From Candidatus Omnitrophota bacterium (lineage in GTDB: Bacteria; Omnitrophota; Gorgyraeia; JAFGHF01), in contig JBHPFV010000001.1 of the NCBI GenBank assembly GCA_042571705.1, positions 46,630 through 110,629 of the forward strand: a DNA stretch of 64,000 nucleotides. Direction: 5' to 3'. The notes under the pieces were generated by a model that was not told where the DNA came from, ran no database searches, and saw only the letters and a list, made by a program, of their open reading frames with translations. Positions 84-54,567 of this stretch are shown here, in pieces (position 1 is the stretch's first letter; the number at the start of each line of letters is the position of its first letter). Made by a program: the position numbers and the translations under genes.

Positions 84-195
84 GTGCTGGGTATTTTGCC
101 TGTGCTTGGTTTATCTACCCATAGCTTCTATGCCTTGGCGATTATTGGGTTAATTTTATTAGGAGCCGCTATCTATCGTTTGGGGCGTAAGGGCG
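84..195 (+). repeat. Junction J0 (LG..PVLG motif + TM + basic cluster) at the ORF start
   Basis: Peptide VLGILPVLGLSTHSFYALAIIGLILLGAAIYRLGRKG. DNA gtgctgggtat resembles J1-J3 (ctgggtatatc), and PVLG resembles J15/J24. Confidence 0.5.
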
Positions 196-3100
196 TGTTT
201 GCTGAACCTAAGCCTTGGTGGTCAGCGGGATTGGCATTTCTTTTGATGCCCTGGGCCTACCTATTCTCCAAATATCTGATTAATGTGCAGCAGGTGCCGG
301 CGGTGCCATTCATCTGCGCCTTGTATCTGGCTGCCTACCTTACGCTTTGGCTGGTGCACCAGAAGCTGTTTGGTTTTTATGCGCCGGAAAAGAAGCCTGT
401 CTCTGAGAAGCTTGCTTCTCATGCGTCAGCTCGTCGGCCCTGGGCATTGGAGCGCGCCACATGGAAACAGTTAAATCGAGAACAAAAGAAACAGATTTTT
501 TTGAGCGCGATTTTAGCCCATGTAATTCCACCTCTAGTCATTTATTATAGTTTTCAGGCTACCTCTGTTTTAGTTACGCTTACCCTGTTAACGTTAGGTA
601 CAGTCTTTTCGGTATGGATCAATCGCAAGGCCACAGACAATGTCAAGTGGCCAGAGGGACCGACACAGGAAGAAAGGGATGCTCACCAGGGCAAGCCGGT
701 TTATACTTACTCTGTAAATAATTGGGAGCTGGGCACAGCGGAAAGGGCAGCTAGTTATGAGCAGAAGCCAAAAGCTAAGCAAATAGCCAGGCGCAGGCGA
801 ATATTGAAGCGACTTTTAGATGAGGAAAAGGGATTCCGCGAGCATGCTCCACCTCAAGTAAGAGCGCGCATTGAGAATCGTCTGCAAAGATTCACTATAA
901 TCGTTGATCCCACCATTAAGACCTACGCTGAATGTAATATTCGCAGAAGAGAAATCTATCTGCATCCCGCCTTCTTTGATCTGGACTACTCAAGAGAAGT
1001 CGAAATTTTCTACCATGAAGCCGTTTCCCATATTGCCAAGCAAATTAAGAACGAACAAAAGGCCTTAGAGGACACCTTGTTCCTGTTCCGGATAAGTGTA
1101 GCTGAGACCAATGAGATTATGGGCGCAGCCGCCGCCTGGAAGATTGCCTGGGACATCAAGCAAGCCATAGCCGAAAGGGGAAGGGCGATAGTGCTCTGGG
1201 CCTCAGCGCCTTCGCAGCACACTACCTGGGATGCCCTAATCCCATTATTCAAACAATTTAACATCGATGCGACAAAAATTATCTGCTTCCATATGGATGA
1301 GTATGTAGGCCTAAAGCAGGATGCGCCGCAATTGTTCGGCAAGGTTTTGAGTGAGAGGTTATTTAGCCAGCTAGGTATTCCTAGACGAAATATCTATTAT
1401 TTCGATAGCCAGATAGGATATAAAACCGCGGTTCAATTAAGAAAAACCAGGGCAAAGGGCCAGATAAAGCGATTAACCAACCAATTAAAGCAGGAAATCC
1501 AACCACATCTTGACTATATCGTTGCTCAATTCCAAAAACACGGTGGCAGATTCGATACGGTAGTAGGAGGCATTGGCATCCATCCGCATGTAGCCTTTAA
1601 CGACTACCCCGGTGCCGACTTCAATGATCCCAAGATAGTTAAGCTGGTCAGGATTACTGATACCTCACGCTGGCAGCAGGTCAGGGATAAAGAATTTGAG
1701 AAAATTGAGGATGTGCCCACACATGCCTTTACCTTTACGCTGCCACCGATGTTTAACTCCCGAAGCATCCACATCATCGTGCCCAAGCCCTTTAAGGCTC
1801 AAGGGCTGAAGAAGACCCTGGATGGAAGGATCTGGATTAAGAGTCCGGCCTCGGGCCTGCGAAAGCAACATATCCTGCCCCGGGTCTGGTTCTATTTTGA
1901 CCGCGAGGCGGCCGCTAAATCAAAGGTAGCCCAAAGGATACTCGGCCTGAAAGGTTACGCCAGACCAAATTCTTATCCTTTAGCCATTCCGGAGAGGCCG
2001 GCACTGTTTTCTAACGATACAAGCTTAGATAAGCTACCTGTATGCAGAAATCCTCTGCCGCGGGCGCAGAAGATACTGGTCATCGAAAGCGCTAAGGCTG
2101 AGGCCCAGCTCTACGCCGGCAATCCAATTAATGATTTGCGGGTAGAGAATGAAGTACGCACCCTGACTGCAAAATCCGAAAAATATATTACCAGCTACAT
2201 CAAAAGATATCAGCCGCAAATAATTATTTTCCCGCATAAGATGCAATTGGAGATAGACCGGGCTTTACGAAAAGCCAAGCAGCGGCCTATTCTTGCGGAA
2301 TATCACACTCTCGAATTGCGCCCAGGCATGCTCTTTGTGGGTTACGGCCGGAAGATTTGGCAAGAAATCAAGAGTAAAGCCATTGGGGCGCATGCTTCCC
2401 AGATAAAAAGAATTGGCTTAATCCCGCTGGCAAAATACACGGATACGGCCGCGGCCCAGTTTGCCAAAAGTAAGGACGTTGCTCAATATAAAGGAGAGAT
2501 GGCCGAGATCTTTGTCACCAGGACAATTAAGGCCGGTGAGCTTTCAATAGATAAAGATGCGCCCAGTTTAAGCGTAAAAGATGTTCCTAAAAACGCGCTG
2601 GTGGTATGTAGCTCTGCCCATCCTGATGACATTGAAATTGCTTGCTCGGCATATTTGAATTATCTGAAGCGAAAAGCCGCCTACATTGCCAACATAGTGT
2701 TTACTTCCGGGCACCGAGTGGATATTCCGCATATTAACAACGATCCCAGCTTGAGCGGGCCGCAAAAGAAGGCGGCCAAGATAGACTTGAGGGAAAATGA
2801 GCTACAGGCCTCTGCGCGGGTTTTAAGGCTGGACCAGTATCATTTCCTTAAACTCGGATTTTATGACTGTACCGATGATCAGGGAAATAGAATAATTAAC
2901 AATATTGATAGAGACAAGGTGCGTAGATGTTTTATACGTTATATTCACCAATTCCAAAATGAAGGCCGCAGCCAATTTATTGTGTTTCTCAACTACAAGA
3001 TCGACTCCCACCCGGACCATGTCGCCACTAATGCTTTAACTAAAGAAGTCCTGAAAGAGCTTTCTATTGAATACGGAATCGAATTTAAACTGAAATTATA

Positions 3101-6100
3101 TATGGCCCCTTGGGCCGGCCCGGAAAACCTCTACCACTATTCCAGAAGCTTCCCTCTAGAAATGAAATCAGCCAAAACGCCCAGACAAAGGCTACTCTTG
3201 CAGGCAGCCATGAATCAGGCCCAGGCCTTAAGTGGAGTCAGCGGTGAGCTGGTTGGCACATTAGCCGCCACTCCGGTGAGTAAAGATAAACTTGGCGGTG
3301 TTTTTGTGCAGCGGCTTGCAGTGCAGCCCCGGGTGGTAGCAGCCTGCCCGGTTTTCGTTAGTGGAGGCGAAATGCTGGCTGCGGCCATTGTTATTCTGAC
3401 TTTAGCATTTGCTGTTAGGGTGATTTTGCAGCATTCAAGAGAGCGAAATGCGAACTGGAAAGATAAATTACCGTTTCCCTGGCAGCTGATGTGCTGGCTA
3501 GGGGCAGCAGTCAGCGGAATGGCCATAGCCATTCTCTGCGGCAAGTATTTGAATAGGCAAAAGGCATCAATGGAGAAGAAGGCACTCATCCGGTCGGATC
3601 AAAATCAGGAAAAAACAGTTCACTGTGCCGCAGGGGTGTTGGGCTTAGCCGCGCTGTTGGCGAATGTCCAGCCCGATAGCGCCGGCCTGACAACCTGGGT
3701 AATTGCTATTTTACTGACAGTAGGTTTGTTAGTTTACTTTGGCGCCTGGGCAACTATGCGCAAAATAGATAACTCTATTAAAGATTGGATAGAAGAGTTA
3801 GGGCAAAAACACAGTACCTTATACAAGAGTTCTGCTTTGAGAAAAAAGATGATTGTCTCAGCGTGTAAGGTTGATTTAGCAGGGCTAAAGAATGCCCTTA
3901 GAGCAATGATGCGGGATCCAGAAGATGAGCAAGTCAAAAGCGCTATCAAGGTAAATATAGTTGATTTTATACATCAGCAAGGATATAAGGCTGATGACCA
4001 TGAAAAGTATTTAAGCAATAGCTTAGAAATAGCCGCAGAAATAGAAACGAAGCTCAAACACTCTTCTTATAGAGCAAAACGTACTATCAGGAAAACGTGC
4101 GAATCACTGATCCAAATTTGTCAGGATATTATAGGTTGTTTAGAACCTCTGCAAGAAAGATCAGCAGATGATGCAATCAAGCTAAAGGGGGCAATGAGCT
4201 TTAATCTAGGTCTAAAAGATAGCGATGCAGACCTGTCGCAATTAATTCAACGATTTACTGTGATTGCTAAACAGGCTAAGGAAAGAAAAGCCGCGTTTGA
4301 GCAGATACTTAAGCAGTGTACGCAAAGAAAAGCAATGAATGAGCCGGGGCTGCGGCCCACAGATGCGCTTTGGTGGTTTGCCGGGCTGTTGATTATGGCC
4401 TTAATTGGCGTAGTGTATTTTGATCGAGTGTTGATGTTTGGGGGTCTTCCTTTTGCTTGGATAGTAATGAAATATGACTTAATCTACTGCTATTCATTTG
4501 ATCAAAAGCCGGATAACACCTTGCCCATAGCCATACCTGCGATTGATTATGAAGATCAGCATTTTAATGACTTGGTTGCTGAATATCGCTCTCTTGGCCA
4601 AAATGCCCAGAAAGCACAATTGAGCGTTAAAATGAGATTGCTTGAGCATCTTACCCGGGGTGGGCTAAGCAGACCAGCGGCTAAGACATTTGTGGGATTG
4701 CTGATTTCGCAAAAGCTCATAGAAAGAAAAATTGCTGACTGGATTATGACCTATGCTAAGGTGGCCCGGCAGTTTAGGTTCCTGGGCCGATTTGCCCATG
4801 CTCTGGGCATGCTGGGCATATTGGCTGGCTTTGGCTGGATTATCAGGGCCATGAGTTTTATGATTAAGCTGATCACTCTAAGGCAGCTGAAGAAAAATGA
4901 GCAGAGGAAGTTACAAGAAATGCTCTGTCAAAATTTTATGTTTAATCAGAGTACCTGGCTCTCCGGATTGAGCGAAGAAACCCTGGTTGAGCTGGAGCGG
5001 GTGTTTAAACAACTTAAACAGCCTTGCTCCCGTTCTGGCCTTAGCCTGGCTGCGCGGATATATCTCAGGTTTGAGTTATTGGAAGATGTAATGACAGGTG
5101 ATGGCAGGATTCTTCAGCCGCGGATTAATCAGTATAAGGATGAGATTATTCCGGCTGTTAAAGCGCTGGAAGATCTTACTGCGGGACATCCTACTCAAAG
5201 CGTAGGCTTGTTTATAAAAGTTAAACTTCCTAATCAACTTAAGGTTGAGCAAGTCTTTCGAGAAGCAGATCAGAACTTAAACCAAAATTTAAGTGATTTT
5301 TCACTGATGCTGATCCGTTATCTGGCCAGAATCAGATTAGCGAGCAGGTGCAGCATTATTCAGGAAGGAGGCAGCAAACTTATTCTATTTCCCCCTGCCA
5401 CTTATCCAGTTACGGTGCTGCTAATGCGTAAATTTATACATCTATATTGTTTGTATCTAGATCAATGGCTGCCGCGCTACGAAAATGATTTTAAGGACGT
5501 CATCAAAATCAAAAGAAGAGATTGCCTGGGATTGGTAAAAGATGCAGCGCTTTCAGGCCGGATAGAGGATAACAGGTTACATGATATAAGCTTGCGCTGC
5601 GAGCGCGCAGGTGGCAAATTGAGCGATATAGATGATTACCTATTCCCAGGCGCAATGAAGCGTGTAGTAGAGTTAGCAGAAAGGGGTAATCTTTTAGCCA
5701 TATGTCAGACGCTTAAAGATATCTGCATAAAAAGAGACAGAGATCTCGCGGTCAGACATCGGGCCCTAACGCTGCTCAGAGCGGCCTACCCAGCCGAGTA
5801 TAAACCAATTGCCGTTGCGGAAAAGGCATATTTTGAGTGGGAATTTAGGCGGCAATCACGCGGTGTGCTGCGCTTTTTAGGATTTAGCCCCTTTGACTTG
5901 GGCAAGGTAGAGTCCTGCCAAGCCGAAGAGCCGGATAAATCAGGATTGGTTAAGCATACCTTAGCGGTGCGTGGCCATGAGCCAATTAGTTTTTGGGCTC
6001 GAGAATTCAAGCGAGGCAAAGACCTTAAACAGGCCTTAAACAGAGAGATCAAAATAAACAACAGGGCTTTTAAACATGACTTAGCCTCACGGGCAAAATT

Positions 6101-9100
6101 GATTAAGCTCCATAGGGGTGGGGCTAAGCTGATTTTTAGACTGCAGGGCGTGCCTTTAAGAAATTTTGACTGGGCTGAGATTTCTGCGGATGAGGCTAAA
6201 GAGGTAGTCAGGACAATCGGCCTGGCCTTAGACAAGCTACACGCCTGCGGCATTGTCCACAATAGTCTTTGGGATATTGAAATAATAGAAAACAACATCC
6301 GAATTATAGAGGAGCAAGGTACGATTAAAGTACATTTTGCTAATTTTGCCTTTGCCGAAACCGCCATTCATTGGTTGCGGTTTACCCATGAGCGGGATAC
6401 CCTGATTAGTCTGCTGACAGAAAAACTAGATTCAACATATGCAGATGGCCAATTTGACTGTGCAGAATTTACTGCCTGCTATGAAAATTGGCCCTTGGGC
6501 AAGCAGAGGCATCCGCCAACAGCGATGATTGGCTGGATCTGGGAGCGTTGGATCGGTGAGGGCAGGGGCAAAATCTCAAGAAAAACCGCAGCCAGGATAT
6601 CGTTTACGCTTGAGGAAGGCTTTTTTGCCGGAATCTTACTTAATTTTCTGCCGTGGCTGTTTGCGAAAATTGGTTCCTTGGACCCCGGTGTTATGTTCGT
6701 GGTGTTGTTTTATCTCAGCATCGTCTGTTATGCCACATCCCACACCCGGATCTATCGCTGGCAGCAAGGTAAAGTTGAGGACGAAGAGGCCAATGTGCGT
6801 CATCTGTTCTGGTTTGCGCTCATAGGCTTCCTCTTCCGCATTGGTTACATTATTCCCGGTGTGCCGGGATGGTCGAGCCTGCTTCTAGCCTTAGCATTAC
6901 ACGCCCTGTATAACAATGTCGTTGTGCCACTTGTACCAAGGCTGCCTTTAGCGATGGCGGCGGATAAAGTAACTCCGGCAAAAGCGAAGCTATCTCGCCT
7001 GCAAAACTTTGCCCGGGATTTTAAGTATATGAAAAATATAACATATCGCATTATTAAGTTCAGATATAATGGCGCGCGCTTGGAAAACGGCAAATGTTAC
7101 ATTGTCAGAGCAAATAAGCCTGATGTACGTGCAGTTGAAGAAGCAAAGGTGCTTTTGGATATAAATCCGGAAAATGCCGTTCAGTCTTTGCCTAGCTTGA
7201 TAGGTTTTGTTAAGCCTGAAAGCGTTCAACAGGCCATGGAACATACTTTTAGCTGGTTTGATGATTTTTCTGATGCGATAGTGGTTGAATTTATTGATGG
7301 TCAGAAATTAGAAGATTATTTTGCCCGTGTTTTAACTCATGAAAAGAAAAGCCTGGGTGAACCTATCCTTTTTGAGTTGGTTTTGAAGATCCTGCGAGCT
7401 TATAAAGAAATTTACGCGGATAAAGGATATGTAGCTTGTGATTTGGATCCTTTTGGAATTATTGTGCAGGCAAAATATAATGGGATTGAAAGAGTTGTGT
7501 TTGTAGATAATGATGCCACGGCAAGGATCGATGACTTAAGTTCCGCAGCCATCTATAATAAACTTTCACACAAAGATGACTTCATAAGTGCAGATAGAAG
7601 AGCGAGGATTAACAAATATATCTTTTGCAAGGATGCCCTTGGGCTAAAACACGAGCGAGTTATTTCCTTGTCTAGAATGCTTTGTTTACCCAGAGACGAT
7701 GTTTACGCTTTATGCGCGACTTTATTACAATGTATTCATTATATTCCTCAAGCATGGTTTGATCAACCTAATCAAGGGAAGGCTAAGGCCAAGATTGCTC
7801 AATTAAAGCACTTGCTGTCAAAGTATAAACGCTTATCCTGCCGCGCGCGCAAACACGACCCAGCGTCAATAGATAATTTTATCCAAGATGTAGAGGCAAT
7901 AGCTGGGACCAAGCAGGCCAAAACAACACCCGCTACGGCGATGATCGGTCATTTCTGGAACTGGTTATACCAGAAAGATATAATATCCTTGGAGACCGCG
8001 GCCAGGATTGCCGGCTTAGAGGAGCTGGTGTTTGCTGGACTTTTACTTAATTTTATGCCTTGGTTTTTGGCAAAATGTGGATTCTTGGATCCTGCAATTT
8101 TTCAATTACTCTTTGTAATCAGCGTCATCTCCTTTGCTCTTCTTCACGATGCCTTCTATTTTTGGGAAGGCGATAAAGTTAATTTAGATTCTTTAATTGA
8201 TACCGAAACTGATAAAGTCTCATTTGCGCTCCTGGGCCTTGCCTTTAGATTAACTTATCTTATTCCCCAAATCAACCCCTGGCTTAGTTTAGCCATCGCC
8301 CTGGTTTTCCATACTCTCTACAACAATTTCATTGCTTGGAAGTGGTCTGATGATCTACCCATAGCCATGGCCAGTCAAAAGGCGAAAAGAGGAACAATGA
8401 AAAGAGCAATTTTCTCTGGTACTCGGGAGTACTCATTCACTAAGGATGATTTAACTACGAGGGTTCCTTGTTGGAGAAGATCTGTCGGAAGAGACAGAGG
8501 AAACAGAAGAAGAAGAGGATACTTTTCAATGGCAAAACAGGAACAAACCAACAAGACCGCGCTGGGTATATCTTTTGCGCCCATTCTAATGATCGCTGGG
8601 CTGGGGTTGATGTTGGGGCTGGTTGTGGTGTTTACCTTAGTGTTGTTGGGTTGGATGAGGAAAAAGGCGGGCAAAACACTATTATTTATAGCTGATAAAG
8701 GAGTTCCAATCTATCTCTATGTCTTGGAGAATCTTTTTAAGCAGCCCTTTAGAGATATCCTCTCCTTTATGAAAAGGCACTACCGTACATTTTCCATCAG
8801 GATGTTTAAAATAGATGTGGCTTCCACGCTGTCTAATTGGCTCAAAACCAAGTTGTTTAAGAATTTTGATGACCAGAGAGGATTTGAGAGGAATGAGTCT
8901 CATTTGGCCAGCGAAGATACGATTAAAGAGTGGGTCAAGGCCCAAGTTGCTGCCGGTGCCGATGTATTAGATCTTCATGTAGCAATTAAGGGAAGAGATG
9001 AGGCCGAAGATTTACTCTGGGTGATCGGATTGGCAAGAGAATGTACCACCCTGCCGATAAGTATTGACAGTGTTGATCCGCAAGTCGTTACCCAGGTGCT

Positions 9101-12100
9101 TCGGGCAACAGAGAATAGGACTGCCGACCCTAACGATAAAGATTATCTTTATGGTGGTCCGGTAGTGATTAATTCCATCAATGAGCAAAATGTGGCTGCT
9201 TTTACAGAAATCCTCACTGAGCAGAGTCTGCGGGATATTTCGGTGATTGTCCAGCCTCATCCCGGGCTAATATCTAAATACCTAGAGTGGGAAAAGTTAA
9301 CGGCGGCACAACTTGACAGCATTAAGCATTGCGTAGTAGCGCTCAAGGGATTAATTCCTGAAAGAGATATTTACATCGATCCGGGCATCCAACCAGTTGG
9401 GATGTATGGATCAGGATACGGGGTAATTGCCCTAACTCTGTTAAGAAAGATTAAGTCTGATCCTAAACTGGCGAATGTAAAAACCACGGGTGGATTCAGT
9501 AATGTAGGTAACAAATTAGAATTGTATAAAGATGTGAAGGAAAAATTTGAATCGGTCAAGCATATGAAATCTAAGCTGGCGCAGGCAAGTGTGATTATGG
9601 CTATGCTTTATCGGTCTTTAGACGCCGCCTTAATCGACCCAACAGACAGCGAGCTAATGGAGAGTATCAATATGGCTGGCCAAATCAATAAGGTCTGGGA
9701 GCAGTTGGAAGTTGAGGTTAGCAATCAGGAATTTCCTCTTGCTGACGAGAAATTGAGCGAGATCATTGATAAATATAATATCAGTATTGACGAAGAAAAG
9801 AAAGACCTGATCAATCAGGTTTGCATGCTGATGCTTATCGCCTCCAAGGCAGATCAGACTGATAAGTCTATGCTTGAGCCTGATTGGCAGCCTGAATGGG
9901 AGCCAAAGGTAAGCGCAGAAGACAGCGCTGCTAAGGCCCAACGCACGCTGCGGGCGGCCAGGGTAGCCCTGCTCAAGTCGGAGTACGGCGTGCGTAATCT
10001 ACTGGATGAATTTATCTTCGCCGAGCCAGTCATTGCTGAGCCGGAAGAGGATTCCGAAACCGAACAAGCGCTGGGCGTATCCGCTTTACCTATTCTAGCA
10101 TTCACCGACCCGCTATCAGTAGCTTTAGTTGTTTTCTTTTTGGTTTATGTAACATGGATATTTGTGGACTGGGCGTATTTCGAAGGTATGCGGCAGTTTG
10201 CCAGCTTTGAGCCGGTTGAATGGAAGGATATGCAGCCAGCGGTTCTATTTGTCAGACTGTCGAGTGGTTTGGAAGAATACCACAGGCTGGATGCTTTACG
10301 CGGTTATAATACCTTCGGCGCGCTGGCCAGCGCCTTAAGAAGTAAACAATTTTTACAAAAATTTGCTCACGCTAATAGATTAAACAGTCCCGAGTTTGTC
10401 TTTGAAAGTGAGGATGACTACCCTGATTTTGATGTGCATCTGGCCGATCTTTCCCGAAAGCCAGAGCAGGCTTCTATAGAAGAGTATTTAAATAATTTCC
10501 TCAGTGAGAAAAATATCCAACCATTTATGGTCTGCGTATCAGCCACCAGCACTGAACTTGACGAGGCCAAGGAAGTAGCTAGAGTTTCGGCTGAGATTAT
10601 GCCTGAGGCTAAGCGAGTGATCGGCGGGGCACATGTTTCAGTAGCACCTAATGGCTATTTACGCAAGACAGCATACCAGATTGCCTGTATCGGCGAAGGG
10701 GTAGAAACCCTGACCGAATTAGCTTTTGAGTTGAATGTTCAAGGCCGGCGCAGGCCGAAACTATCTAAAATTTCAGGCATTGCTTACAAAACCGCAAAAT
10801 TTTGGATACGCTTAACTCCGGATAGGATGCCTCAACTTAAGCTTAATGATTATCCTTATCCCTCAAATAGCTTAGATTTGTTTGTTGATAATTGGGAAAG
10901 CGTTGAGGAAAATAAGAAGTGCGTAATTCCGATATATGCCGGTTCAGGCTGTCGATACAATTGCGCCTTTTGCGCTCAAAAGGCAATCTACAAAGGAAGA
11001 ATCAGAGAGCGCAGCGCAGTTAGCATCTTTTCCGAGTTAAAGAAGTTACACAAAAAAGGTTTTAGAATGTTTAGGATGCTTCAAGAAAGCTTTCTCAATA
11101 ACAAGGACAGGAACAAGGGCAGGGTCGAACGATTTTTAGAGTTAATAGAGGCAGAAAAAGCCAAAAATGCAGATTTTAAGTTTAAATGGCAAGCAGAAGC
11201 CAGGGCCGACCAATTTGATGATTATAATTTATTGCGCAGGATGAGAGACAATGGATTATGGGGTATTGCGATAGGCTTAGAAACAGGCGACCAGGCGCTC
11301 CTTGACTCCTTAGACAAAAAAATCAAGCTTGAACAGGTGTCGCGGTTAATCGAATGGTGTGATGAGCTTGGTATCGATATAGTGGCTTACTTAATGGTTG
11401 GCCTGCCTAATCAAGATTGGCAGAGTGCGTTAAAGACAGTCATCTTCTTCAAAAGGAATCTGCCGCGTATTATTTATATTAAAATTAATCCATTTATTGC
11501 TGCTGCCTATCTAGGTACTAGACTCAGCAGAGACGGCTCAATAAGAATTATTAGAAAAGCAAAGAACAGCCTTGATTTACCTGTAAGCACTGAAACCGAT
11601 GCGAAGACTTCTGAAGAAATAACCGAAGCATGGGAACTCCTGAGTAAGTTCAATGTCGCCTTTGAAGCAATAACTAGAGTTGTTGTAGTAGACGGAACAG
11701 ACCTTTACGAAGTGCCTTTAGATAAGCCAACCACTTTAATAATTAGAAGGACTATGCGAGATCTTGTTATCCGGGCCCAGCCCAAACTTACGGCCAAGAA
11801 ACGCAAGCAGGCATATCAACAAATAGTTAAGCACGATGTAGCCGCAGATGTGGATATTGGTTTTGAGCGCGAACAACTGGCCACAAGGCTGTTTACCGAT
11901 TTTATTCTGGATATAAATTTTGCCAATGGATTTAAGGCAATGCGGCATTTCACTGTCGTCAACCGGATCAAATGGATGCTCCTCTGCGCCGCTATCTGGG
12001 GATTAAAGAATAGTGAATTTGATACTATAGAATTTACACAAGACGAAGATACGTTAGGACAAAAGCTCAACAACTCATTAGAGGTAGTTAGCCTTAAGGA

Positions 12101-42100: not shown

Positions 42101-45100
42101 TGTTTTAGCAGCATATTTTTTCCTCCCTCCCGAAGCAACAACCCAAGCCATGGCTCAGCTTTTCGGCACAGGAGGCAGCGCAGCAGGAGTTAAGTCCTTA
42201 CTCCCGGCAGGCGGCATGGCTCTGGCCATGGCGGGGGTGACAGGAAGCGCAGGCGCAGGAGAAAGATCTGAACGAGAATTTAAGCAACCTTCAAGGAATC
42301 TTGTTAATAAAGATGGCCCAAAGGCTGGCTTCGGCGCACCGTGGAGAATTGATGTGGCCAATGTGCCTACGCTTGCTTTTACTCAGGTTGCGGCAGCAGA
42401 ACCCGAAGATTCGATGTTTGCATTGAATATCTATCTGCGCTATCTCTCGGTCGCAGCCAAAAAAGAAATTATGAATAGAATTAGGCGTGCACGTAAGTTT
42501 ATTGAGAAGCTAGAGTCAATGTATCCCGATGCATTAACTTTTGTGCTGTTTGGAAGCTATCCTTATGGTTTTATGAATGAGATACCACGCGACATAGATG
42601 TTCACATTACGGAAAGCAAGAACGAAAATATTACGCAGCTAACAAATCTTGCTGACCTTTTTGATAGGTATAGTCGCACGCCGGAAACCGTGAAAGGCGT
42701 AGTTTTTACCGAAAAAGATTTCTTAGGGTCATTATCTCAAAATAACGCAGGTTTGATATTGCCTTACGTTCTAGAGGCATTGACCGGTATTACCGTTAAG
42801 GGGAAATTTTATTACGATGTCAATAATCCACCTTCGCTCAGGTATATTTTCTACCTTTTAGATTTTACTCAAGAAACCATAGATGAATCGATGGAAATAT
42901 TAGATTTGCCTTACTCGAGTGAAAGTCTTCAAGAGTACAGGCATTATAAGGCACACCAAGTGCATAGAGATAAAATTCGCTTTGCTCAAGACACCATAGA
43001 CGCGTTTGAAAGAAGAGAAAAAGGCAGAGCTGCCATGCACATGAGAGCTATAAGACTTGTATGCCAAAGTCAACTTGTTATGAAGTTGATCTGCGATCTA
43101 TATGGAGTAGATAGCACAGAAGTCCTGCCGCCAACATCCAATAACCCTTATATTAACGAACAAGCGATCAAGACATTGAGTACATATATAACAGAAGGTG
43201 CTCCCCATATGTCGTTCATCATGGACGGCGTACATAATACTGACGACTTTACTTTAGTCTATGATGCCTGTCGTCAGCTATGCGAGGCATTAACGAGTTT
43301 GGATGAAAGAGTGGAGAAGTTGCGGCAGCGTACCCAAGACAAAGATCCCGATGCTGCCTCCGGCTCAGACGGTACAGCCCTCTCCATCTTCGGACTTTGT
43401 GGGTTGGGGATGGGTGGTGTGCCTTTACTGGCTGTTGGGGCAGTGGTTGTGCTGTGTTTTAGCCGTATGTTTAGGTCGGGCTTAAACAGGTGGGGTTGGG
43501 GCATTGCAGCTGCATTATTACTTATCCCAGCGCTATTTGGCCAGTCAACAGAGCTGTTTGCGGTCGCAGGAGGTTTTAAGCCTTTGCTTGGCGGGGCAGG
43601 CGGCATGGCTCTGGCTATGGTCGCCATGATGGGTGGGATGACAGACGTTGGCGATGGGTCGCATAAAGATAAAAATAGGTCTGACCCCTTTTCTCCACAA
43701 CCTTCTTCGGAAAAAGCAAAGAAGGTAAAAGAAATTTTTGGTGAAAACGCGATAAAAGACGAGCTCGATTTAAATTATGATTTTCAGCAGCTTGTAGAAG
43801 GACATAGGAGAGAGAGGTTTGAAGAAGGGAACGAAGGTGGGGCGAAAGGGGAAACAAAGTGGTTTCCTTTAAGAATAGCTTTAATGCCGCTTTTTAGATG
43901 TGTAGCCAATTGTCTGTATTGTTTCTTTGGAAATAGCGTACATAAAAAAGACGAGATGTCCATAGAGAATATGGCTCATATATTCGATACCCAAGAATTA
44001 CTTATAAAAAATATTTTCTCACATCTAAGCGGAGGAGAGATTTTCCTGAGGGATGATGTGTTGGAAATGATTGAGAAATTTCCAATCGTTTCATTAGTTA
44101 CTAACGCGGCAACCATGACTTCTTTAGAAAAAGCTAAGGATTCCATTATAGCGTTAAAGAAAGTATATGAAAAAAGAATAGAATCCGGACAGATGGAGAT
44201 TTTAAAGCCAGATAGTTTTGGGCAAGTTGATAGATATCAGAGATCCTGGTTGTGTTATTTATGGATGAGAGAGAAACTAATAGAGTTAACCCGAAATGAG
44301 CCTTTTCATATAGGTATTTCCTTAGATGACATTTGTTTAGCGGAACACTCTATTTCTGTGGGAAAAATAGCAAATTTAATAGTCGCTTGTGTTAATCATT
44401 ATCCTAAATTGGGCCTGGGATTTATAGCAATTGATGGAAAATGGAAAGAAGAAGCATACCCTGCCCTGAAGAAAGAACTTGAGAGGCATGGTTTAGCTTT
44501 AAAATTCAATGAAAAAAATAATAATTTTCTTTTGACAAGGCACGGTGGATTTAGAAAACTAATCAATTTAAAAGAAAATTCTATTGAAAAAGTGGGCGGC
44601 GCTTTTGCTAATTTGTCCGGTGAAAATTTTGGCAAAGCTATTTTACCCAAACAAAGGTCTTATTTTGGATTCTATAAAGATTATTATGGACTAGCTATAA
44701 TTGATTATAGTGGCAACATGAGTATTTCAGACGGTTTCTTGGCTGAGCATGCACCTCTTATATTTGGAAATGTACTTGAGGAAGGCTGGAGTAAAATACT
44801 TAAGAGGGTAGACAAAGATCCACTATTTAGAGCGCTAGTTACCTCAACGCAAAAAATTATTTCAATAGCAAAGGAATATGATCCTGATATTGTAAAAAAT
44901 ATACAAGAGGGCAAGCCCGGTGGGACTATTGCACTATTTTACTGGCTTCTCTCCAACCCCGAGCGAAAACTCTACGTAACCTATCGGCTTCTGCAAGACT
45001 ATTACGAAGAGGGCGTGTTAAAAGGCAAAAATCCGTTCAAGGACCTGGAGCCACATGAGATAAAGGCTTTAGTTGAGAAAGAGGTTGGAGAATTAAGAGA

Positions 45101-48100
45101 TGAATTCAGAGAAAGACCAGGTAAAGCCACAGATGATGGAGGCAGTCACGAATCTCCTGAAACTCTATCCGCCTTTTGGTTTGGTGGGTTGGGACTGATT
45201 GGAGCCGAGCACTGGGTAGTGCTGGCTGTGGGTCTAGGTATTATGTTTGGGGGGACACTTCTCCGATTGGCTCGAGAAACGGTCTCCGATTGGCTGGAGA
45301 ACCGGTCTCCGTTTGGGCTGAGACCTGGTCTTATCAATGTGCGATTAGTAGGCTGTTTGGTATTGGGGATATTAGGCATCGCGGCTCTATGGCTATGGGG
45401 CGGCCCAGGTACAGGGCTGGCTGTGGCGGCGGACTTTGAGCCTTTGCTTGGTGTAGGCGGTGGCGTAAGTTTAGCTATGGCGGGGGTGGGGGTGATTTAT
45501 GCAAGCTTAAATGATAAAGAGGGGCAGATCATAAGTGCTGTTGAGAAATTTTATAATGAACATGGAGAGAATGTTTATAGAAACACTGCAGGAGGAATAG
45601 GGGGGAGATATAAACCATTGCCATCAAAAAAGGCGATGGAAGATTTATGGTTACTGTGTAAACAGTTAAGAATACGAAAAGGAGACAAATTTTATGATTT
45701 TGGATTTGGGGATGGTAGAATTGCTGTTATGATGAGAGCGCTTGGTCTCCAAGCGTATGGCGACGAAATAGATGTTAATTTAGCCAAGAAAGCAAAGGTT
45801 TTATTAGGGAAAAATCTTAAGAAGTATTCATTTTTAAGTAGCCTTGTAAACGAAGACAATGTACATCTACAACACGGTGATTCCTTCAATCGAGATTTAT
45901 CTGAATTTGATATTGTCTTTTTCTATTATACGTTTCCTATTCCAGATTGGACCGGAGGAAATCAAGATTTGGCTAGAGAAGTGTTTAAACAAAGAGTATG
46001 GGCAAAGCTGATTGGCAATATAGACGGAAAAGGCCTTAAGTCTGGGGCACAATTTATTACTTTCTGTCCTCCCGAGAGCAAATATTGGTTAGATGACTTT
46101 GATGAATTTAATGTTATGCATTGTGGTAATTTCGGGATATATGAGCTGAAACCGCAGGTTGGGGATGGAGACTTTGGTGGCTGGATGACTGATCCAATGT
46201 CTGGATTTGTTGGTATGCATCAGGCGGGTTGGCGTAAGAAAGCAGAGGAATCGCAACCGCCCCCAGAAGATATTTATTCTATAGCAAAAATAACCGTACC
46301 GAAAACTGCACATAGGCAAAAAGGAATACACCACAGGCCTTCGCTAGCTCTTGTTGATACTTGTGGAAAAATATATAAGCTATTTTCTGAAAATATTATA
46401 ATTAAATTTTCAAGGGGTGAGGAAAGTAGTGGCGATGAGGCTACTTATCGTCATGGAGGCATTGCAGAGTTTGTTTTTAAAATAGGATCCTCAGGTGGAT
46501 ATACAGGGCCATATATAATTACTATCGAAGGGCCTTTTAAGCAAGACCTGCTTGAAGAGGCAGCCAAGATTCTTGCTACCGTTCTAGGGGACGAAAGATT
46601 TAAATATGGTTTTCATTCAGACCTGCCACTGAGAGAGGAAATAGATGAAAAGATTAGACAACTCAGAACATCCATTGCCAAAAATAGGGGTGACGACCAA
46701 TCTTCAGAAGCCCTATCCGCTTTGGGGCTGGGGGGCTTGGGGTTGATGGGTGGCTGGAATGTTGCTATTTTGGCTGTGGTGACTGTAGTGGTTATGGCTA
46801 TTTTTAGCTTACGGCAGAAACGAAGGGGTGATTATCGTGACAATGAGGTTACTTTAGCCTCAAGAGTAGATATGCGTTTTTCCAGGGCTTGGAGTTCTTG
46901 GCGGTCAACTTTAGTTTTGGCGAGATTATCAATGCTTTGGGTAAGTGTCTCAATTTTAGCGGCCATATTCTGGATTGCCGCTTCTAGAAGGGTAATCTTT
47001 TCGGTATTCTTGCCAACTTGCTCATACGTAGCATCAAGCTTAGAAACCATTTCTTCTTGTCGTTCGCCAAATGCCTTGAATTCACTGCGAAATTGGTCAA
47101 TTAGCGTACCTACTTCCGTGGGGCTAAATTTAGCTTTGGCAGGTTTGCTTGTTCTGATGGGTTTTTTCATGGTGAGGTATATAATAAGCCTGCCGAGCGC
47201 AAAAGTCAAGCGAAAAATAATGCCGCTAACCGTTAAAGGTGAGCTAAATGTACAATTACTTGAAAGGTTGGTTGATCAGGCTGGCAGAAACGCCGGATTT
47301 GTGCTTGATGTAGGGATTATAGCCAGGATTGTTGGCGGAATGAGAGTTCTAAGGTCAGGAAAACGCAAAGATATAGATATTGCTCTTATTTTGCAACATC
47401 CTTTTCAAGGTGGTGAATGCAGCAAGTTTATTGAACAGTTTAAACAAATAGTAGAGAAACATCAAGGTGTAGAGTTAAAGAAAAGAGAAGTGAGTGCAAA
47501 GGAAGGGAGGCATTTTCCGTTTCATTATCTTAAAATTACTTCTTCTTTAGCAGGACAAGTAAAAGAGATAGAAGTTAGGGATATATTTCTTATACTTGAC
47601 TCAAGATTGATTTTATCTGCCCTTGCTCCACCTTCACAGGTTCTATCAGACCAGACGCTCGAATCCCTATCCCATTTATCTTTCAAGAATCTTATTACTT
47701 TAGAATATTATCTTGGTGATTTAGAAATATACACTAAGATGTTGGAAGAATTCAAGAGTAAAGTTCAAGATGGCGGCGATGTGATCGTTGACTTCGATAA
47801 GCATCCTTCTTATGCTGAAAGGGCAAGGACGCATATAGCGGAAGCCAAAAGATTAATGGAATGCAGTGAAAGGGAGTTGGCTCAGGATGAAAAATTTCGT
47901 CAGGTTCATACCCGTTATACCTGTTTTATCTTTAATGTAGAAAAAAGGGTCAGACGTCAATCTCCGAGACCGACGAACTGGCGGGGGCATCAGATGTTAC
48001 CGTCGGGAGTGGTGATGACACAAGAGATGCTGCAGAACAACGGATATGCGCAGGGGTGGCAGCAAGGCAGAGCTGCTCGAGCAGCCAATGCATGGTTTGG

Positions 48101-51100
48101 CTTAGATGGTGCCGATTCTTTTACAGATCCGCTCATACCCAACATAGCCGGTGCGTTTCGGCAGGGGGTGAATCGGGGGAATGAGTCTGAGTCCATTGGA
48201 GAAAGTCAAAATTCAAGACCTGACCCCATTTCTGGTAGAGGGGACGGCAGGAGAGGAAGAAGTGAACCCGTCCCCAATACTACTGCAGACAATAAGGGGA
48301 AATCTTTTCTTGCTTTTTGGAGTGGCGGTAAAGATAGCTACTTTGCCGTTAAGTGGGCATTAGAACAGGAGTTGAGGGTTGCTTATTTATTTAATGTTTG
48401 CTATCGCAAGCCGCCGAATGGCAAATTGATGTCTTTATGCACTCTTCCTGTCGACTTAATATATTTACAGTCCAGAGCTTTGGGTATTCCTTTGATTACA
48501 AGCATTATAAATGTAAATGATATGGCATATCCAGGAGTGGGCTATGTGCAACTTTCTACCAATACTTTAAAGAGGTTTGTTAAGAGTTCAAAGAGTAATG
48601 TCGATGGCATAATTGCCGGAGACATGTTGCAGGACAACAAAGATGAATTAGAAAGAATTTGTGCCAGCTTGGGCATTAAACTTATAATGCCACTTGAACA
48701 TCAAACTCAATCGGAAATCTTATTAGAAGCCGTAAAGTCCGAAAATAGGATAGTTATTTCTTCAGTTCAAAAATCATCTATGGAATTGTCTGAGTTCTTT
48801 AGGGGTGGATTCGACAGGCGTTATATTGATTATTTGAGACGGCATCATAGTGATGTCTTAGGTAGTAACGGCGAATATCATACTATAGTGCTCAAGGGGA
48901 GTAAGTATGTCAATGGCTGGATAGAAATAATAAATGAAACATTTGAGATCCACAGAGATTGGTGGGTACGCAGCTTTAATGAATATCGTTTTGTTCCCAA
49001 AGCGACGAGAGCTGAGGACAAAACACTCAATTCCGCCCAAAAAAATGATTTACCCGATTCTGAAAGTAGTGCCCTATCCGTCTTGGGGCTGGTTGGAGTC
49101 GGATACTGGGTAGTGGCGGCTGTGGCGGCGTTAATTTTTGTCATCATCGCCAAAAGGGACACTTTCCCGTTTGGATCTGGCCCAGCTTCCCGATTGAATC
49201 CAGACCTGGTCCTACCGATAGGGGTGGGGGTTGGGGTGGCGTTGGTCTTCATGGCGCAAGAGGGGGCGCTTATTGGCGGGATGTTCCTGACCGCAATGAT
49301 GGGTGGGATATATGACATTGGTGGGAAAAAAGTGTCTGTTCCTAATTTACTAATGTTAAAACAACGTTTGGATACGCTAGCCACAATTAAAGACAAAAGG
49401 AAAGCCGTAGAATTCGCTCGTAGTTTTGGGTTGGATTTAAGGCCCAGTATTTATGGAATGTTGCATCCGCTTCATATCGGTCATTCAAGGGCAGTCCATC
49501 GGCAGATTTCTGACAATGACGACACAGAAGCTAAAATAGCTGTCGATGGAGCCGGAAGTGTGGACCTGACAACAATTGTACATTGTACCGGAGCGCGTGA
49601 AATTTATAAGATAGATCATCAGAGTACCTACACTATTGAACATTGGCTTGGAAGCTGGGATTCTTTTGGGACTCCAAGAGACCCATTACTGAATCGTTAC
49701 ACTGATCCGTATGCGGGATATAAATTTATCAATGGGTACGGCGAATCTGGAGAATATGGGACCTTTTATAATCTAGCACAATTAGTTGCTGAACTAAAAG
49801 CATTGGGTGTTGAAAGAAGAGATATTGATACAGTAACAGAAACAGTGCAAAATGATGCATGGAAATGGTACGACGATAAAAAGGGCGAGAGGACATTTTT
49901 AAGAGAATTAAAATTTTTGTGGAGTCCAACAAGCAATGAATACGACAAGCAGCCTCACACTGTACATTTTATAAAAGGAGACATTACCGATCCGAGCACC
50001 TATTTAAGCAAGATCGAACATTTAAAAAGTAAAGTTGATTTTTACTACCAAAGAGCAGGATTTTCCGCAGCTCGATATTATGGGAACTATATACCCAAAA
50101 TATTAGAGTTGCTTAAACCCGGAGCTTTTATAATTACAGATGATTATTATTTAAGAGATGACGGAGAAGTCTTGGTAGTAGAACCGGTGGATTTGTCCCT
50201 TGTTTTGCAGGAAAAGAAACTAGATTGTTATAAAGTACCTTTATCGCCTAAAGTTGAGGCCTGGCGGAAAGCTATCTTGAAATTTTTAAAACAGACTATT
50301 GTCAATAGGTTATTGAAAGGCGAAGTTGGATACGGGTGCGACTTAAAAATTTACCAAAGGACTGCAAATATTGGACCAACCCAATCAACCTCTGCCATCT
50401 TTGTTCCCGGCCTGTTCGCCTTTGGCGAAACTATGCCGGTCCTGGGGATGGGTGTGGGGGGCTGGATGGTGCTGGCTGTGGGTCTAGGTATTTTGCTCTG
50501 GAGGGACACCTTCCCGTTTAGATCTGGCCCAGCTTCCCGATTGAATCCGGACCTGGTCCTACCGATAGGGGTGGGGGTTGGGGTGGTGGCGTTGTTCTTG
50601 GTGGCGCCAGAGGGAGGTTTTCTGGGCGGGATGTTCCTGGCCGCAATGATGGGTGGGATTAATGACGTTAGTGGAAAAAAAGAGTCTGTGCCTAATATTT
50701 TGAGTGAATTGCAGGGCATGATTCGACAGGCAGATAGAGAGGATGAATGGGAGTTAATTGTTTCCTGTACCGGGTTAAGAAAAAATATTGTTGCATTTGT
50801 ACTTAAAAGAGAAATTCCACTTCAAGCTGTGCCTTCGGTTGCCCAAGCTATAGCGCGTTGCGGCTTTTCAAAAACAGAAGAAGCCCTGAAATTGGTTAAT
50901 CCAGAAGCCGCGGTTTCAGCTGCTATTGCTATTCAATATGTTGGAAGGCCCAAAGTAAAGCAGCTTATGCGGCGTAATATTCCACAGGAAAAACTCGGTG
51001 CAGTTGCTGATCTGATAAAATATTATGGCCAAAATGCAGAAAGATTATTTAATCCAGCTTACAGAAAAGAAAGTTTTGTTACTGCACATGCATATGAGAC

Positions 51101-52988: not shown

Positions 52989-53003
52989 ACGGACAAGTAA
53001 AAA

Positions 53004-53345
53004 CTATTCTCTGATGCGGAAGCCGTCTTTTTCTAAGATAATCAATTTCTTATCTAAATCTTTCTGGGAGAATTTATTGAACAAGTCTTCTAAGCCGACT
53101 AAGATAGTGGAGATAATCGGTGGGCGGGCTTTGATTCTAATAATGCCGTGGAAATTTTTAGGTGGAAAGGTAAGCAAATTAGCAAAATCTTTGTCTTGGG
53201 TAAGGATAATGCGATTTTGCCGTTTGGCCAGAATAGCGATATCTGTATCTTTAGTTCCTGAAGTAGGCGTGGTAACATCGTGTCCCTTATCCCGCAGGAT
53301 GTCTACTAGTTCATCAGGGATGTTCTCGTCAACCAGTAGCTTCAA
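53004..53345 (-). CDS. DUF5615-family PIN-like putative toxin
   Basis: MKLLVDENIPDELVDILRDKGHDVT..TDIAILAKRQNRIILTQDKDFANL matches the DUF5615 N-terminal pattern. It is convergent with the giant ORF stop, separated by a 15-nt gap. Confidence 0.7.
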   Translation of the reverse strand: MKLLVDENIPDELVDILRDKGHDVTTPTSGTKDTDIAILAKRQNRIILTQDKDFANLLTFPPKNFHGIIRIKARPPIISTILVGLEDLFNKFSQKDLDKKLIILEKDGFRIRE

Positions 53346-53346
53346 C

Positions 53347-53601
53347 TTAAGCCACCTTAGTAAAGGGAACCGACTCTCCGGTCCTCATAAGCTCAGCCGC
53401 ATAATGGAGCGCCGCCTGAATGTGTTTTTTGGTAAGCTTTCGATAATACCTTCTAATTATTTCGTCTTCATCTACTCCGGACTCAAGGAGCTCAAGAACA
53501 AGATAGACCATGATGCGACTTCCTTTAAAACAAGGCTGGCCATGGCAGATTTTAGGGTCAACTGTGATATAATCTTCGATTTTGGTGATTCTCTTCAACA
53601 T
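53347..53601 (-). CDS. DUF433-family putative antitoxin
   Basis: ITVDPKICHGQPCFKGSRIMVYLVLELLESGVDEDEIIRRY..LTKKHIQAALHYA is a typical DUF433 pattern. It lies 1 nt upstream of the DUF5615 gene, with AAGGAG 7 nt before the ATG. Confidence 0.7.
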   Translation of the reverse strand: MLKRITKIEDYITVDPKICHGQPCFKGSRIMVYLVLELLESGVDEDEIIRRYYRKLTKKHIQAALHYAAELMRTGESVPFTKVA

Positions 53602-53654
53602 ATTTTCTCCTTAATTAATTTTTTAGTTCGTTTACGGAATAGCTTCTTTATGAA

Positions 53655-53683
53655 TTTATACCATAATTTTGAGCGTAAGTCAA
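53655..53683 (-). promoter_or_regulatory. Sigma70-type promoter for the DUF433/DUF5615 operon
   Basis: The minus strand reads TTGACT (53683-53678), a 17-nt spacer ending in TGG, then TATAAA (53660-53655). Confidence 0.6.
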
Positions 53684-53797: not shown

Positions 53798-53847
53798 TTC
53801 CGGCTTGTCCGCTAACCATGACCTTACATTCAAAGGGGTTGGTTTAA

Positions 53848-54564: not shown

Positions 54565-54567
54565 AAA

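Follow-up and report, generated by a model that had tools for sequence, protein, structure and literature searches.

A 64,000-nucleotide (nt) stretch of Candidatus Omnitrophota DNA (contig JBHPFV010000001.1, positions 46,630 to 110,629; hereafter, the window) is dominated by one giant open reading frame (ORF), which enters at the left edge and ends at nt 52988. We consider it likely that this frame is a genuine giant gene, probably missing its 5′ end in the window, that it belongs to the described class of Omnitrophota genes for multi-enzyme proteins with many transmembrane (TM) helices, and that it encodes a membrane enzyme array built on linkers. Judging from its recognisable domains, the product would be a chain of mostly cytoplasmic-face enzymes tethered to the inner membrane. 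Giant multi-TM proteins of Omnitrophota, unique in sequence and often encoded near genes for carbohydrate-active enzymes (CAZymes) or other carbohydrate genes, have been described (10.1101/2023.11.21.568195; 10.64898/2026.06.07.730766), and the translation of the class as single chains is still largely unproven. Taken alone, the giant ORF is confirmatory, one more example in a class with thousands of catalogued members. What is new relative to both preprints is a repeated, lineage-specific linker, a divergence between assemblies that falls at such a linker, and the presence of antisense genes under the open frame.

Extent and coding status of the giant frame

Not one TAA, TAG or TGA interrupts the giant frame over nt 3-52988, which leaves 17,661 stop-free codons counted from the window edge, a run that chance cannot produce. 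As had been reported when the frame was first noticed, it is the only one of its kind. Per 3 kb, about 58-100 stops are found in the other two sense frames (a stop density of 6-9%) and about 22-78 in the three antisense frames. An alternative genetic code is ruled out, because the flanking genes terminate with TAA, TGA and TAG and the standard code consequently applies. The next-longest ORF in the window (59616-61283) measures 1.67 kb, in line with the 1.7 kb initially given for the next credible gene.

Coding potential was scanned as a codon-usage log-likelihood in six frames over windows of 450 nt, and the giant frame scored highest in 344 of the 350. Further evidence comes from a related locus, L001, which lies on a 335-kb metagenome contig (Ga0315279_10000025) and shares a collinear block of 900 amino acids (aa) at 59% aa identity (50-68%). 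Between the two, nucleotide identity is 0.71 at the first, 0.76 at the second and 0.44 at the third codon position, inter-domain stretches included, a pattern that points to purifying selection on the giant protein. The 24,458 nt of L001 themselves form a single stop-free frame, which encodes at least 8152 aa and runs off either end of the retrieved sequence, with DUF218, the same pair of deaminase-like and PIG-L modules as in the window, two RpiB, sigma-70 r2 and HTH_26. In the window, the first membrane module of the gene stands directly upstream of the PIG-L block that both loci share, whereas in L001 it comes about 400 aa after that block; module order is thus not conserved.

The gene had been given a start at nt 84 and a length of 52.9 kb. 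The frame is real, but nt 84 is merely its first start-type codon and the length is a lower bound, as the frame is open up to the left window edge. For a true start near nt 84 speak the AT-rich composition of nt 1-83 (GC 0.37) and one sigma-70-like site within them (TTGCCA-16-TATCAT at 14-41), where 0.5 would be expected by chance. On the other side, the 27 in-frame codons 5′ of nt 84, together with the first residues, read ‘..KGAQSA-N-VLGILPVLGLS..’, followed by a helix and RLGRKG, and this region aligns with internal boundaries of the giant gene (‘QAVLGISILQ’, ‘QALGVSALPIL’, ‘KTALGISFAPIL’) as well as with boundaries in L001 (‘QSALGIFPLPW’, ‘PVLGLS’). Because this conserved boundary motif straddles the putative GTG start codon, the gene appears to continue upstream, and the first membrane module also occupies an internal position in L001. 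An extension of the gene beyond the window is, on this evidence, quite probable.

GC content at third codon positions (GC3) declines gradually along the giant ORF in the 5′ to 3′ direction, from 0.51 to 0.35 (0.53-0.64 in the flanking genes), and the correlation of its codon usage with that of the flank drops from 0.82 to about 0.5. No RNA genes, tRNAs or long tandem repeats were found inside the ORF. Tandem repeats of 23 nt do occur at 25443-25505 and 45260-45331 (2.7 and 3.1 copies), and their copies are read in different phases, as this period is not a multiple of three.

Relatives and origin

The assignment to an Omnitrophota giant multi-TM gene, made in the preliminary description, agrees with the published class and with the nearest proteins. 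A query with the C-terminal part found P0003 (‘hypothetical protein ACFL2I_07890, partial [Candidatus Omnitrophota bacterium]’), encoded on contig L003 (NCBI JBHPHE010000087.1) of the metagenome-assembled genome (MAG) GCA_042569555.1, itself labelled ‘Candidatus Omnitrophota bacterium’. This contig of 4899 nt is one open frame throughout, and its nt 982-4899 correspond to window positions 41443-45360, 3918 nt at 100% identity with zero mismatches. Such perfect identity indicates that the window comes from the same population as the NCBI Omnitrophota MAG, an assignment that depends on the binning of a 4.9-kb contig. The N-terminal query retrieved only two partial proteins, from ‘Candidatus Omnitrophica’ MAGs, each of them filling a short contig; they share the deaminase-like module only, at 57-60% identity, and have different neighbours on either side. 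Another candidate, L002, was rejected as a further giant, being an ordinary-sized NagB/Pgl-like gene.

Enzyme-like modules

The protein was cut at hydrophobic clusters into 20 tiles, which were scanned against Pfam, PDB sequences and NCBIfam. Significant family matches span nt 1104-48977, all in the giant frame, which reproduces the range of about 1100 to 50000 noted from the letters alone. They amount to 12 domain instances from about ten families, with at most two copies per family, and five further matches are weak; the weak matches concern sigma-70 r4 / HTH (two paralogous modules), two methyltransferases, DnaJ and a nucleotidyltransferase. In the preliminary description, about 30 unrelated domains had been counted. 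As a count of modules this is fair, given the 27 soluble segments of at least 200 aa (modules of 0.2 to 1 thousand aa) between hydrophobic helices, but recognised instances are fewer and several modules are paralogous: a tiled self-comparison paired the two Dph6-like, the two radical-SAM and the two sigma/HTH-like modules, among others.

The recognised domains are mostly cytoplasmic or membrane-face enzymes, as had been supposed (Table 1). Catalytic motifs are intact in several of them: CxxxCxxC and SGGK[ED]S twice each, AHPDD and HPDH in the PIG-L module, and the DE dyad in the sugar transferase. Some neighbours would also make functional sense, since the deacetylase adjoins the deaminase-like module and the methyl-tetrahydrofolate (THF):corrinoid methyltransferase (MeTr)-like module adjoins the B12-radical-SAM (S-adenosylmethionine) module. 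All NCBIfam scores for the modules are far under the equivalog cutoffs, so no module is an orthologue of a named enzyme. Also in agreement with the first impression, no Pfam or NCBIfam match was obtained for nonribosomal peptide synthetases or polyketide synthases (condensation, adenylation, ketosynthase and acyltransferase domains), nor for Ig, cadherin or RTX repeats. A second motif resembling the C-terminal part of GH130, ‘YYSGSDS’, occurs near aa 8215. Single-sequence structure predictions of aa 7800-8245 and aa 5230-5720 were unusable, with mean predicted local distance difference test scores of 34 and 40.

Linkers, a variant junction and the assembly

In the 3′ third of the gene (nt 30,078-50,700), the boundaries between modules are marked by a repeated element, ‘..(S)PE-T-LS-x-FGLGGLG’ followed by a Gly-rich helix and a basic cluster, often with a second helix and a ‘AADFEPLLGVGGVG...MMGGIYD’ tail after it. 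About 12 copies are recognisable at the DNA level too. When a profile of ten copies was run against 1.84 billion representative proteins, its sole match was P0003, this gene's own fragment, and the linker is therefore lineage-specific, not a widespread signal, and expanded within the gene. The 3′ third, with its DNA-conserved linkers, may be a younger expansion. Only the 5′ block has a relative (L001).

One of these linkers coincides with a divergence between assemblies. The identity between L003 and the window begins inside the linker core, at nt 41443, and upstream of it L003 (nt 1-981) encodes an unrelated module of 314 aa that occurs neither anywhere in the window nor in L001. At its other end, the contig stops 20 nt short of another linker repeat. 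The 314-aa module could be either an unseen 5′ part of this gene, part of a second giant gene, or a strain variant.

Such a pattern raises the question of whether the giant ORF is a chimera joined at its repeated linkers, with the true gene or genes being shorter or reordered. Joins at in-frame linkers would keep the frame open and, for this reason, stop-free length alone does not certify the assembly. The alternative junction could itself stem from misassembly in one of the two contigs, which would weigh against our interpretation of it, and the drift in GC3 is likewise compatible with a composite. The longest exact repeat in the ORF, 91 nt at 15068-15158 and 18104-18194 (direct, 3036 nt apart; 103 nt at 98%), encodes a boundary, ‘LLLPLAWIAAPGLQPATWQLILFTLCLFL’, and is most likely where any collapse or expansion would have occurred. 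However, exact repeats among the 3′ linkers do not exceed 37 nt, short for modern assembly k-mers, and a repeat-driven misjoin is consequently less likely there. The independent contig agrees perfectly over 3918 nt, L001 is independently stop-free for more than 24 kb on its long contig, the literature reports the confirmation of thousands of such genes on complete genomes from long reads, and the change in GC3 is gradual, not stepwise. For these reasons we think it quite unlikely that the gene is an assembly artefact, and its modular giant nature would stand even with some wrong joins. For the junction itself, recombination at the linker, or a second gene that has a 3.9-kb segment of very recent origin in common with this one, seems a better fit than a misjoin.

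Membrane helices and the placement of the modules

Candidate helices were called with a home-made filter of hydropathy and charge on 19-mers, not with a trained predictor. With this filter the giant protein has about 64 hydrophobic helices, roughly 1 per 275 aa, and one to six of them separate successive soluble modules, an arrangement that fits the membrane-spanning linkers between enzyme folds originally described.

Several observations weigh against reading the product as a membrane-tethered array of cytoplasmic enzymes. Family matches cover 13.5% of the residues and 86% match no family, while a search of 5.8 billion proteins returned nothing at E <= 1e-5 for aa 4060-9059; the functional reading consequently rests on a minority of the modules. 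The GH130, PglC-like and NadC modules match only part of their folds, and could be degenerate, truly truncated or diverged beyond recognition. A SecA-DEAD-like domain is absent from the visible protein (Pfam E <= 0.01, NCBIfam E <= 0.001) and could lie upstream, and C39 or S8 peptidase domains were not found in the visible part either, the true N-terminus probably lying outside the window. Finally, the flank rich in K/R is C-terminal in 43 helices and N-terminal in 17 (binomial p = 0.001), and TM15-TM22, eight lone helices in succession that separate large soluble modules, all have the same polarity, with a basic C-terminal flank. No such asymmetry is observed in L001 (11 versus 8).

The pterin-binding and B12-radical-SAM modules have just one helix between them. 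Given the polarity bias and the runs of lone helices, a single alternating chain cannot keep the modules that depend on SAM, ATP and phosphoribosyl pyrophosphate (PRPP) all in the cytoplasm. According to this topological model, an all-cytoplasmic placement needs re-entrant anchors, helices that were missed, or cleavage into N-terminally anchored modules. Re-entrant anchors are an option because the hydrophobic span of the linker, from ‘LS’ to the basic cluster, extends over 27-34 residues and has a Gly/Pro or polar break.

Cleavage would turn the product into a polyprotein, cut at the linkers or with its modules started internally, so that separate enzymes would each retain a short N-out/C-in anchor and a cytoplasmic body. 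The order of motif, hydrophobic helix and basic cluster is that of sortase, exosortase and rhombosortase signals and of stop-transfer anchors, the 43:17 bias and the one-polarity lone helices would fit N-terminal anchors after cleavage, and self-cleavage of giant proteins has been raised by West-Roberts et al. (10.1101/2023.11.21.568195). By contrast, when ten linker 56-mers were compared with NCBIfam and Pfam at E <= 10, no curated sorting signal matched except LPXTG_anchor, in one copy (E = 1.8), and the linker is thus unsupported as a PEP-CTERM, LPXTG or GlyGly-CTERM signal. Neither the giant gene nor its flank within the window gave a Pfam or NCBIfam match to a peptidase, sortase, exosortase or rhomboid domain, the topology estimate is a home-made count of hydropathy and charge, and internal initiation alone needs no open frame across the antisense genes described below. 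We regard the polyprotein as possible but rather doubtful.

A different placement has been proposed for the class as a whole, in which the modules are mostly extracellular and serve a predatory or episymbiotic cell as a surface-exposed weapon for adhesion to prey and digestion of cell walls or glycans. This published hypothesis takes in CAZyme and carbohydrate neighbours, and the gene studied here has a GH130-like module, with GH113, GH94 and ABC sugar permease genes downstream. Moreover, a large part of the chain could be external if every lone helix were a genuine N-out/C-in stop-transfer anchor, and the large unannotated share of the chain leaves room for such functions. Nevertheless, the best-supported modules need cytoplasmic cofactors (SAM, reduced iron-sulfur clusters, B12, ATP and, for NadC, PRPP), and no adhesin, dockerin, TSP3, lectin or peptidoglycan-hydrolase domain was found in Pfam scans of the giant protein. 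Type II secretion or pilus genes are likewise missing from the 11 kb downstream that the window covers, and the sugar locus seems to be transcribed on its own. On account of the cofactors and the missing adhesin and wall-hydrolase domains, degradation of prey walls is not favoured for this protein, and we find the surface-weapon explanation unlikely. The tethered array of mostly cytoplasmic-face enzymes is the interpretation that we carry forward.

Antisense genes inside the giant frame

The preliminary description took the giant frame to be coding and not a chance opening. Two stretches, however, are open in the giant frame but carry their coding signal on the opposite strand (nt 38334-39700 and 46734-47334, islands A and B). 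The six windows in which the giant frame was not the best are at nt 38334-39084, nt 39234 and nt 46734-47334; the top-scoring frame is on the minus strand in five of these, the exception being nt 39234. Four minus-strand genes were recognised in these islands: a RelB-like antitoxin gene, a ParE-family toxin gene and two coiled-coil ORFs, CC-A and CC-B. Directly ahead of each of the three units (CC-A, the RelB/ParE pair and CC-B), the minus strand has a sigma-70-like site close to consensus (Table 1). The RelB-like and ParE genes are on the same strand, overlap, have the antitoxin first and a promoter-like site upstream, and both score above the curated Pfam cutoffs. By these features they are an intact type II toxin-antitoxin (TA) pair, the activity of which is predicted. 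CC-A and CC-B share 44% of their amino acids, and their nucleotide identity by minus-strand codon position (0.52, 0.68 and 0.35) follows the order seen in selected proteins, which points to selection on the minus strand.

The giant frame has no stop codon across either island, whereas the other sense frames have 19 and 31 in island A and 18 and 10 in island B. In ordinary flanking genes, every antisense frame contains 2-30 stops. When synonymous codons of the four minus-strand proteins were resampled with the codon usage of this genome, the giant frame stayed open at P = 0.0037, 0.0048, 0.067 and 0.0075, with a product of about 9e-9. Together, the lack of stops and these probabilities indicate that both strands are constrained and that the giant frame has been kept translatable through the antisense genes. 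Each cassette comes after a linker core and its first helix and before the following linker core or tail. The antisense genes are thus placed inside linker loops, and the giant protein reads them as Ser/Arg-rich sequence that probably forms loops.

These results bear on the least favourable view of the ORF, according to which former genes merged by stop loss into a decaying fusion that is under no selection as a whole. The partial GH130, sugar transferase and NadC modules, the two stretches that code better on the other strand and the large share of sequence without relatives are what such decay would leave. Yet it would have to account for 17,661 codons without a stop beside sense frames with a stop density of 6-9%, for intact catalytic motifs, for codon-position conservation with L001 that includes inter-domain stretches, and for a frame that stays open across antisense genes at P ~1e-8. 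These four observations indicate ongoing selection for continuous translation, and a non-functional open frame is hardly credible. In turn, the open frame across four antisense genes (~1e-8) provides a sequence-only argument for ribosome read-through.

A proposed model for the growth and maintenance of the gene

In the model that we propose, enzymes of amino-sugar and mannoside metabolism (the deacetylase with the deaminase-like module, GH130 and the polyprenyl-phosphate sugar transferase) would be held at the membrane of a very small cell, and enzymes of methyl transfer (the MeTr-like and B12-radical-SAM modules, the isoprenylcysteine carboxyl-methyltransferase (ICMT)-like module and other methyltransferases) and ATP-dependent enzymes (the two PP-loop modules) would be tethered in the same array. 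The gene would grow and be remodelled one module at a time, at conserved in-frame linkers, as suggested by the independent assembly from the same population, in which a linker marks the exact point where the upstream module becomes a different one. Inserts in linker loops would survive only if they were stop-free in the giant frame, and selection keeps that frame open across the antisense RelB/ParE and coiled-coil genes. By analogy with integron TA cassettes, the embedded RelB/ParE pair might guard a costly and recombination-prone gene against deletion. This last step is speculative: L001 has no antisense island in its 24 kb, and an anti-deletion role drawn from one locus is pure conjecture.

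Taken further, the giant gene would be a translated cassette array in which modules are acquired, dropped and exchanged by recombination at linkers, antisense genes use the linker loops as landing sites provided that they have no stop in the host frame, and the TA pair, perhaps with the coiled-coil genes, stabilises the whole. This reading, which would make such an array a general principle of Omnitrophota giant genes that has hitherto escaped notice, is tentative, and we lean against it for the present. Lineage-specific in-frame linkers and the module switch at one of them nevertheless provide a model for how giant genes may grow and vary. If embedded TA genes were general, they would tie addiction modules to the maintenance of very large genes, and would also be a warning to annotators that real genes are hidden under giant ORFs by gene callers.

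Features of the window and flanking genes

The coordinates of the features are collected in Table 1. A TA pair and three PilZ genes separate the giant gene from the sugar locus. The adjacency of this locus had been taken to fit the context of the class. The gene content is consistent with this, with GH113, GH94 and ABC permeases on the downstream side that the window covers, but the intervening genes and a promoter-like site of its own suggest a separate transcription unit. No solute-binding protein or ATPase was seen in the locus, and the GH94 gene, of which the N-terminal supersandwich domain is visible, is cut by the window end.

A plus-strand ORF of 288 aa (52981-53847) overlaps the giant stop codon and stays open across the minus-strand DUF5615/DUF433 pair at P ~1e-3. 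It was rejected as a normal partner gene, since it has no family match and an odd GC content by codon position and overlies that pair. The ORF is offset by one base from the giant ORF, and deleting one A of the A4 run at 52972-52975 would extend the latter to 53847; the offset may reflect a recent frameshift or a sequencing error, or it may be coincidental.

Table 1. Position, strand and description of the features recognised in the window (E-values are given without further label)
Feature	Position (nt)	Strand	Description
Giant stop-free reading frame	3-52988	+	at least 17,634 aa; stop TAA 52986-52988; first start-type codon GTG 84
First multi-helix membrane module	123-623	+	aa 13-184; ~4 TM; homologue internal and rearranged in L001
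Glucosamine-6-phosphate deaminase / 6-phosphogluconolactonase-like	1104-1931	+	aa 341-616; Pfam 7e-6 (just below cutoff); NCBIfam nagB-like 5e-23 to 3e-22; PDB NagB 4e-10
PIG-L / BshB1-like N-acetylglucosaminyl deacetylase	2613-3050	+	aa 844-989; Pfam 3.8e-17
Pterin-binding, methyl-THF:corrinoid methyltransferase-like	8901-9536	+	aa 2940-3151; Pfam 4.5e-9; NCBIfam 1e-22
B12-binding + radical-SAM, class B methylase-like	10428-11438	+	aa 3449-3785; Pfam 3.9e-11 and 3.1e-18; HpnJ/BchE-like 2e-31; CxxxCxxC at aa 3623
Sigma-70 r4 / HTH-like (weak)	13179-14108	+	aa 4366-4675; HTH_8 3e-4; sigma70-ECF 1.7e-5
Sigma/HTH-like paralogue of aa 4366-4675	21600-22535	+	aa 7173-7484; 26% identity, 5e-17
ICMT-like membrane module	24903-25418	+	aa 8274-8445; Pfam weak; NCBIfam 3e-11
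GH130 beta-mannoside phosphorylase-like	26418-26939	+	aa 8779-8952; Pfam 2.6e-19 (profile 215-305 of 320); NCBIfam 1.8e-26; only C-terminal third to half of fold
Polyprenyl-phosphate sugar phosphotransferase (PglC/WbaP-like)	27267-27644	+	aa 9062-9187; 3.9e-16; DE dyad kept, PRP motif lost; N-terminal half only
3′-type linker core array	30078-46757	+	motif, helix and basic cluster as given in the text
Linker core copies	starts 30078, 32088, 34015, 34996, 38338, 38935, 41431, 43366, 45151, 46699	+	protein and DNA repeats
PP-loop ATP pyrophosphatase (Dph6-like) module 1	34314-34967	+	aa 11411-11628; 7e-28; SGGKES
NadC (quinolinate phosphoribosyltransferase) N-terminal half	36228-36656	+	aa 12049-12191; 8e-20; PDB chain residues 22-204 of 287; NCBIfam 5.8e-38, positions 2-141 of 269
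Variant linkers	36853, 49155, 50389, 50502	+	
Linker tail repeats ‘AADFEPLLGVGGVG’	36917, 39602, 45380	+	related to linker core
Coiled-coil ORF CC-A	38450-38854	-	134 aa; promoter-like TTGACA-17-TATGAT (11/12, extended -10 TG) at 38923-38895
ParE-family toxin gene	39060-39350	-	PF05016, 1.4e-11, 45.2 bits versus cutoff 23
RelB-like antitoxin gene	39307-39507	-	PF18506, 4.1e-11, 43 bits versus cutoff 27; promoter-like TTGACT-17-TATATT (10/12) at 39581-39553
Second radical-SAM core, MoaA-like N-terminal part	43869-44126	+	aa 14596-14681; Pfam weak; NCBIfam 7e-8; CxxxCxxC at aa 14606
Coiled-coil ORF CC-B	46832-47209	-	125 aa; likely ATG 47170; promoter-like TTGACT-17-TATTAT (10/12) at 47209-47181
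PP-loop ATP pyrophosphatase (Dph6-like) module 2	48309-48977	+	aa 16076-16298; 3e-21; SGGKDS; 30% identity to module 1
DUF5615/DUF433 TA pair	53004-53601	-	downstream of giant stop codon
Three tandem PilZ genes	53848-54897		114, 117 and 109 aa; putative cyclic di-GMP receptors
Promoter-like site	54904-54933		ahead of sugar locus
Mannan/sugar utilisation locus	54904-64000		two GFO/IDH/MocA oxidoreductases, xylose-isomerase-like TIM barrel, two ABC permeases, GH113 + F5/8 type C, mannanase galactose-binding domain (GBD) protein, second GH113, GH94 start

Comparison with known systems

The closest description in the literature is class 1, the ‘multi-enzyme metabolic cluster’, of Nielsen and Lui 2026 (10.64898/2026.06.07.730766), which comprises proteins of at least 10,000 aa; the product studied here has 17,634 aa from its first start codon. 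Shared with that class are the Omnitrophota origin, the many distinct Pfam families with none dominating, the content of radical SAM, methyltransferase and sugar-metabolism domains, the numerous TM helices without an obvious signal peptide, the uniqueness in sequence under a conserved style of architecture, and the glycoside hydrolase genes nearby. By contrast, helices are more closely spaced here (about 1 per 275 aa, compared with a catalogue mean of 22 helices at 10,000 aa or more), and no type II secretion or pilus flank is visible in the window. Antisense or nested genes, linkers and recombination are mentioned neither in that study nor in West-Roberts 2023 (10.1101/2023.11.21.568195), so that the DNA-conserved linker, the variant linker junction and the embedded TA and coiled-coil genes set this locus apart.

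With the archaeovorin type (West-Roberts et al. 2023, 10.1101/2023.11.21.568195; with its type sequence from Velamenicoccus archaeovorus), the gene shares its Omnitrophota origin, its numerous TM regions, a mixture of family-divergent glycosyl hydrolase or transferase, methyltransferase and SAM-dependent enzymes (here, GH130, the polyprenyl-phosphate sugar transferase, ICMT and other methyltransferases, and radical SAM) and carbohydrate genes nearby (here, two ABC sugar permeases, two GH113 and GH94 downstream). However, that set was defined on genes of more than 90 kb, compared with 53 kb visible here in a frame that runs off the left edge. Domains of the SecA-DEAD-like and C39/S8 peptidase kinds, which most full-length giants are reported to contain (10.1101/2023.11.21.568195), were not detected in the visible part, and neither NUDIX nor peptidase domains appear among its Pfam and NCBIfam matches. 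The authors of that study favour extracellular functions directed at prey, while the modules recognised here are of cofactor-dependent cytoplasmic types.

The linker shares with the PEP-CTERM/exosortase, LPXTG/sortase and GlyGly-CTERM/rhombosortase systems the succession of signature motif, hydrophobic helix and basic cluster. It differs from them in being internal and present in about 12 copies, compared with a single C-terminal signal, and in having no cognate sorting enzyme in the window; the resemblance is one of form only.

TA cassettes stabilise large chromosomal integron cassette arrays, such as the superintegrons of Vibrio. As in those arrays, addiction modules would lie here inside a long array bounded by recombination-prone repeats, and a deletion would remove the antitoxin gene. 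In contrast to integrons, the array is a single translated ORF, its cassettes are antisense and stop-free in the host frame, and there is no integrase or attC.

Embedded antisense overlapping genes have also been reported in E. coli (PMC5960689, PMC9927249), where, as in our case, a protein-coding ORF lies wholly inside, and antisense to, a longer one. In those cases the embedded gene is novel and short and the host gene is established, whereas here the embedded genes are the established ones, RelB and ParE, with promoter-like sites of their own, and the giant frame would read through them as low-complexity loop sequence.

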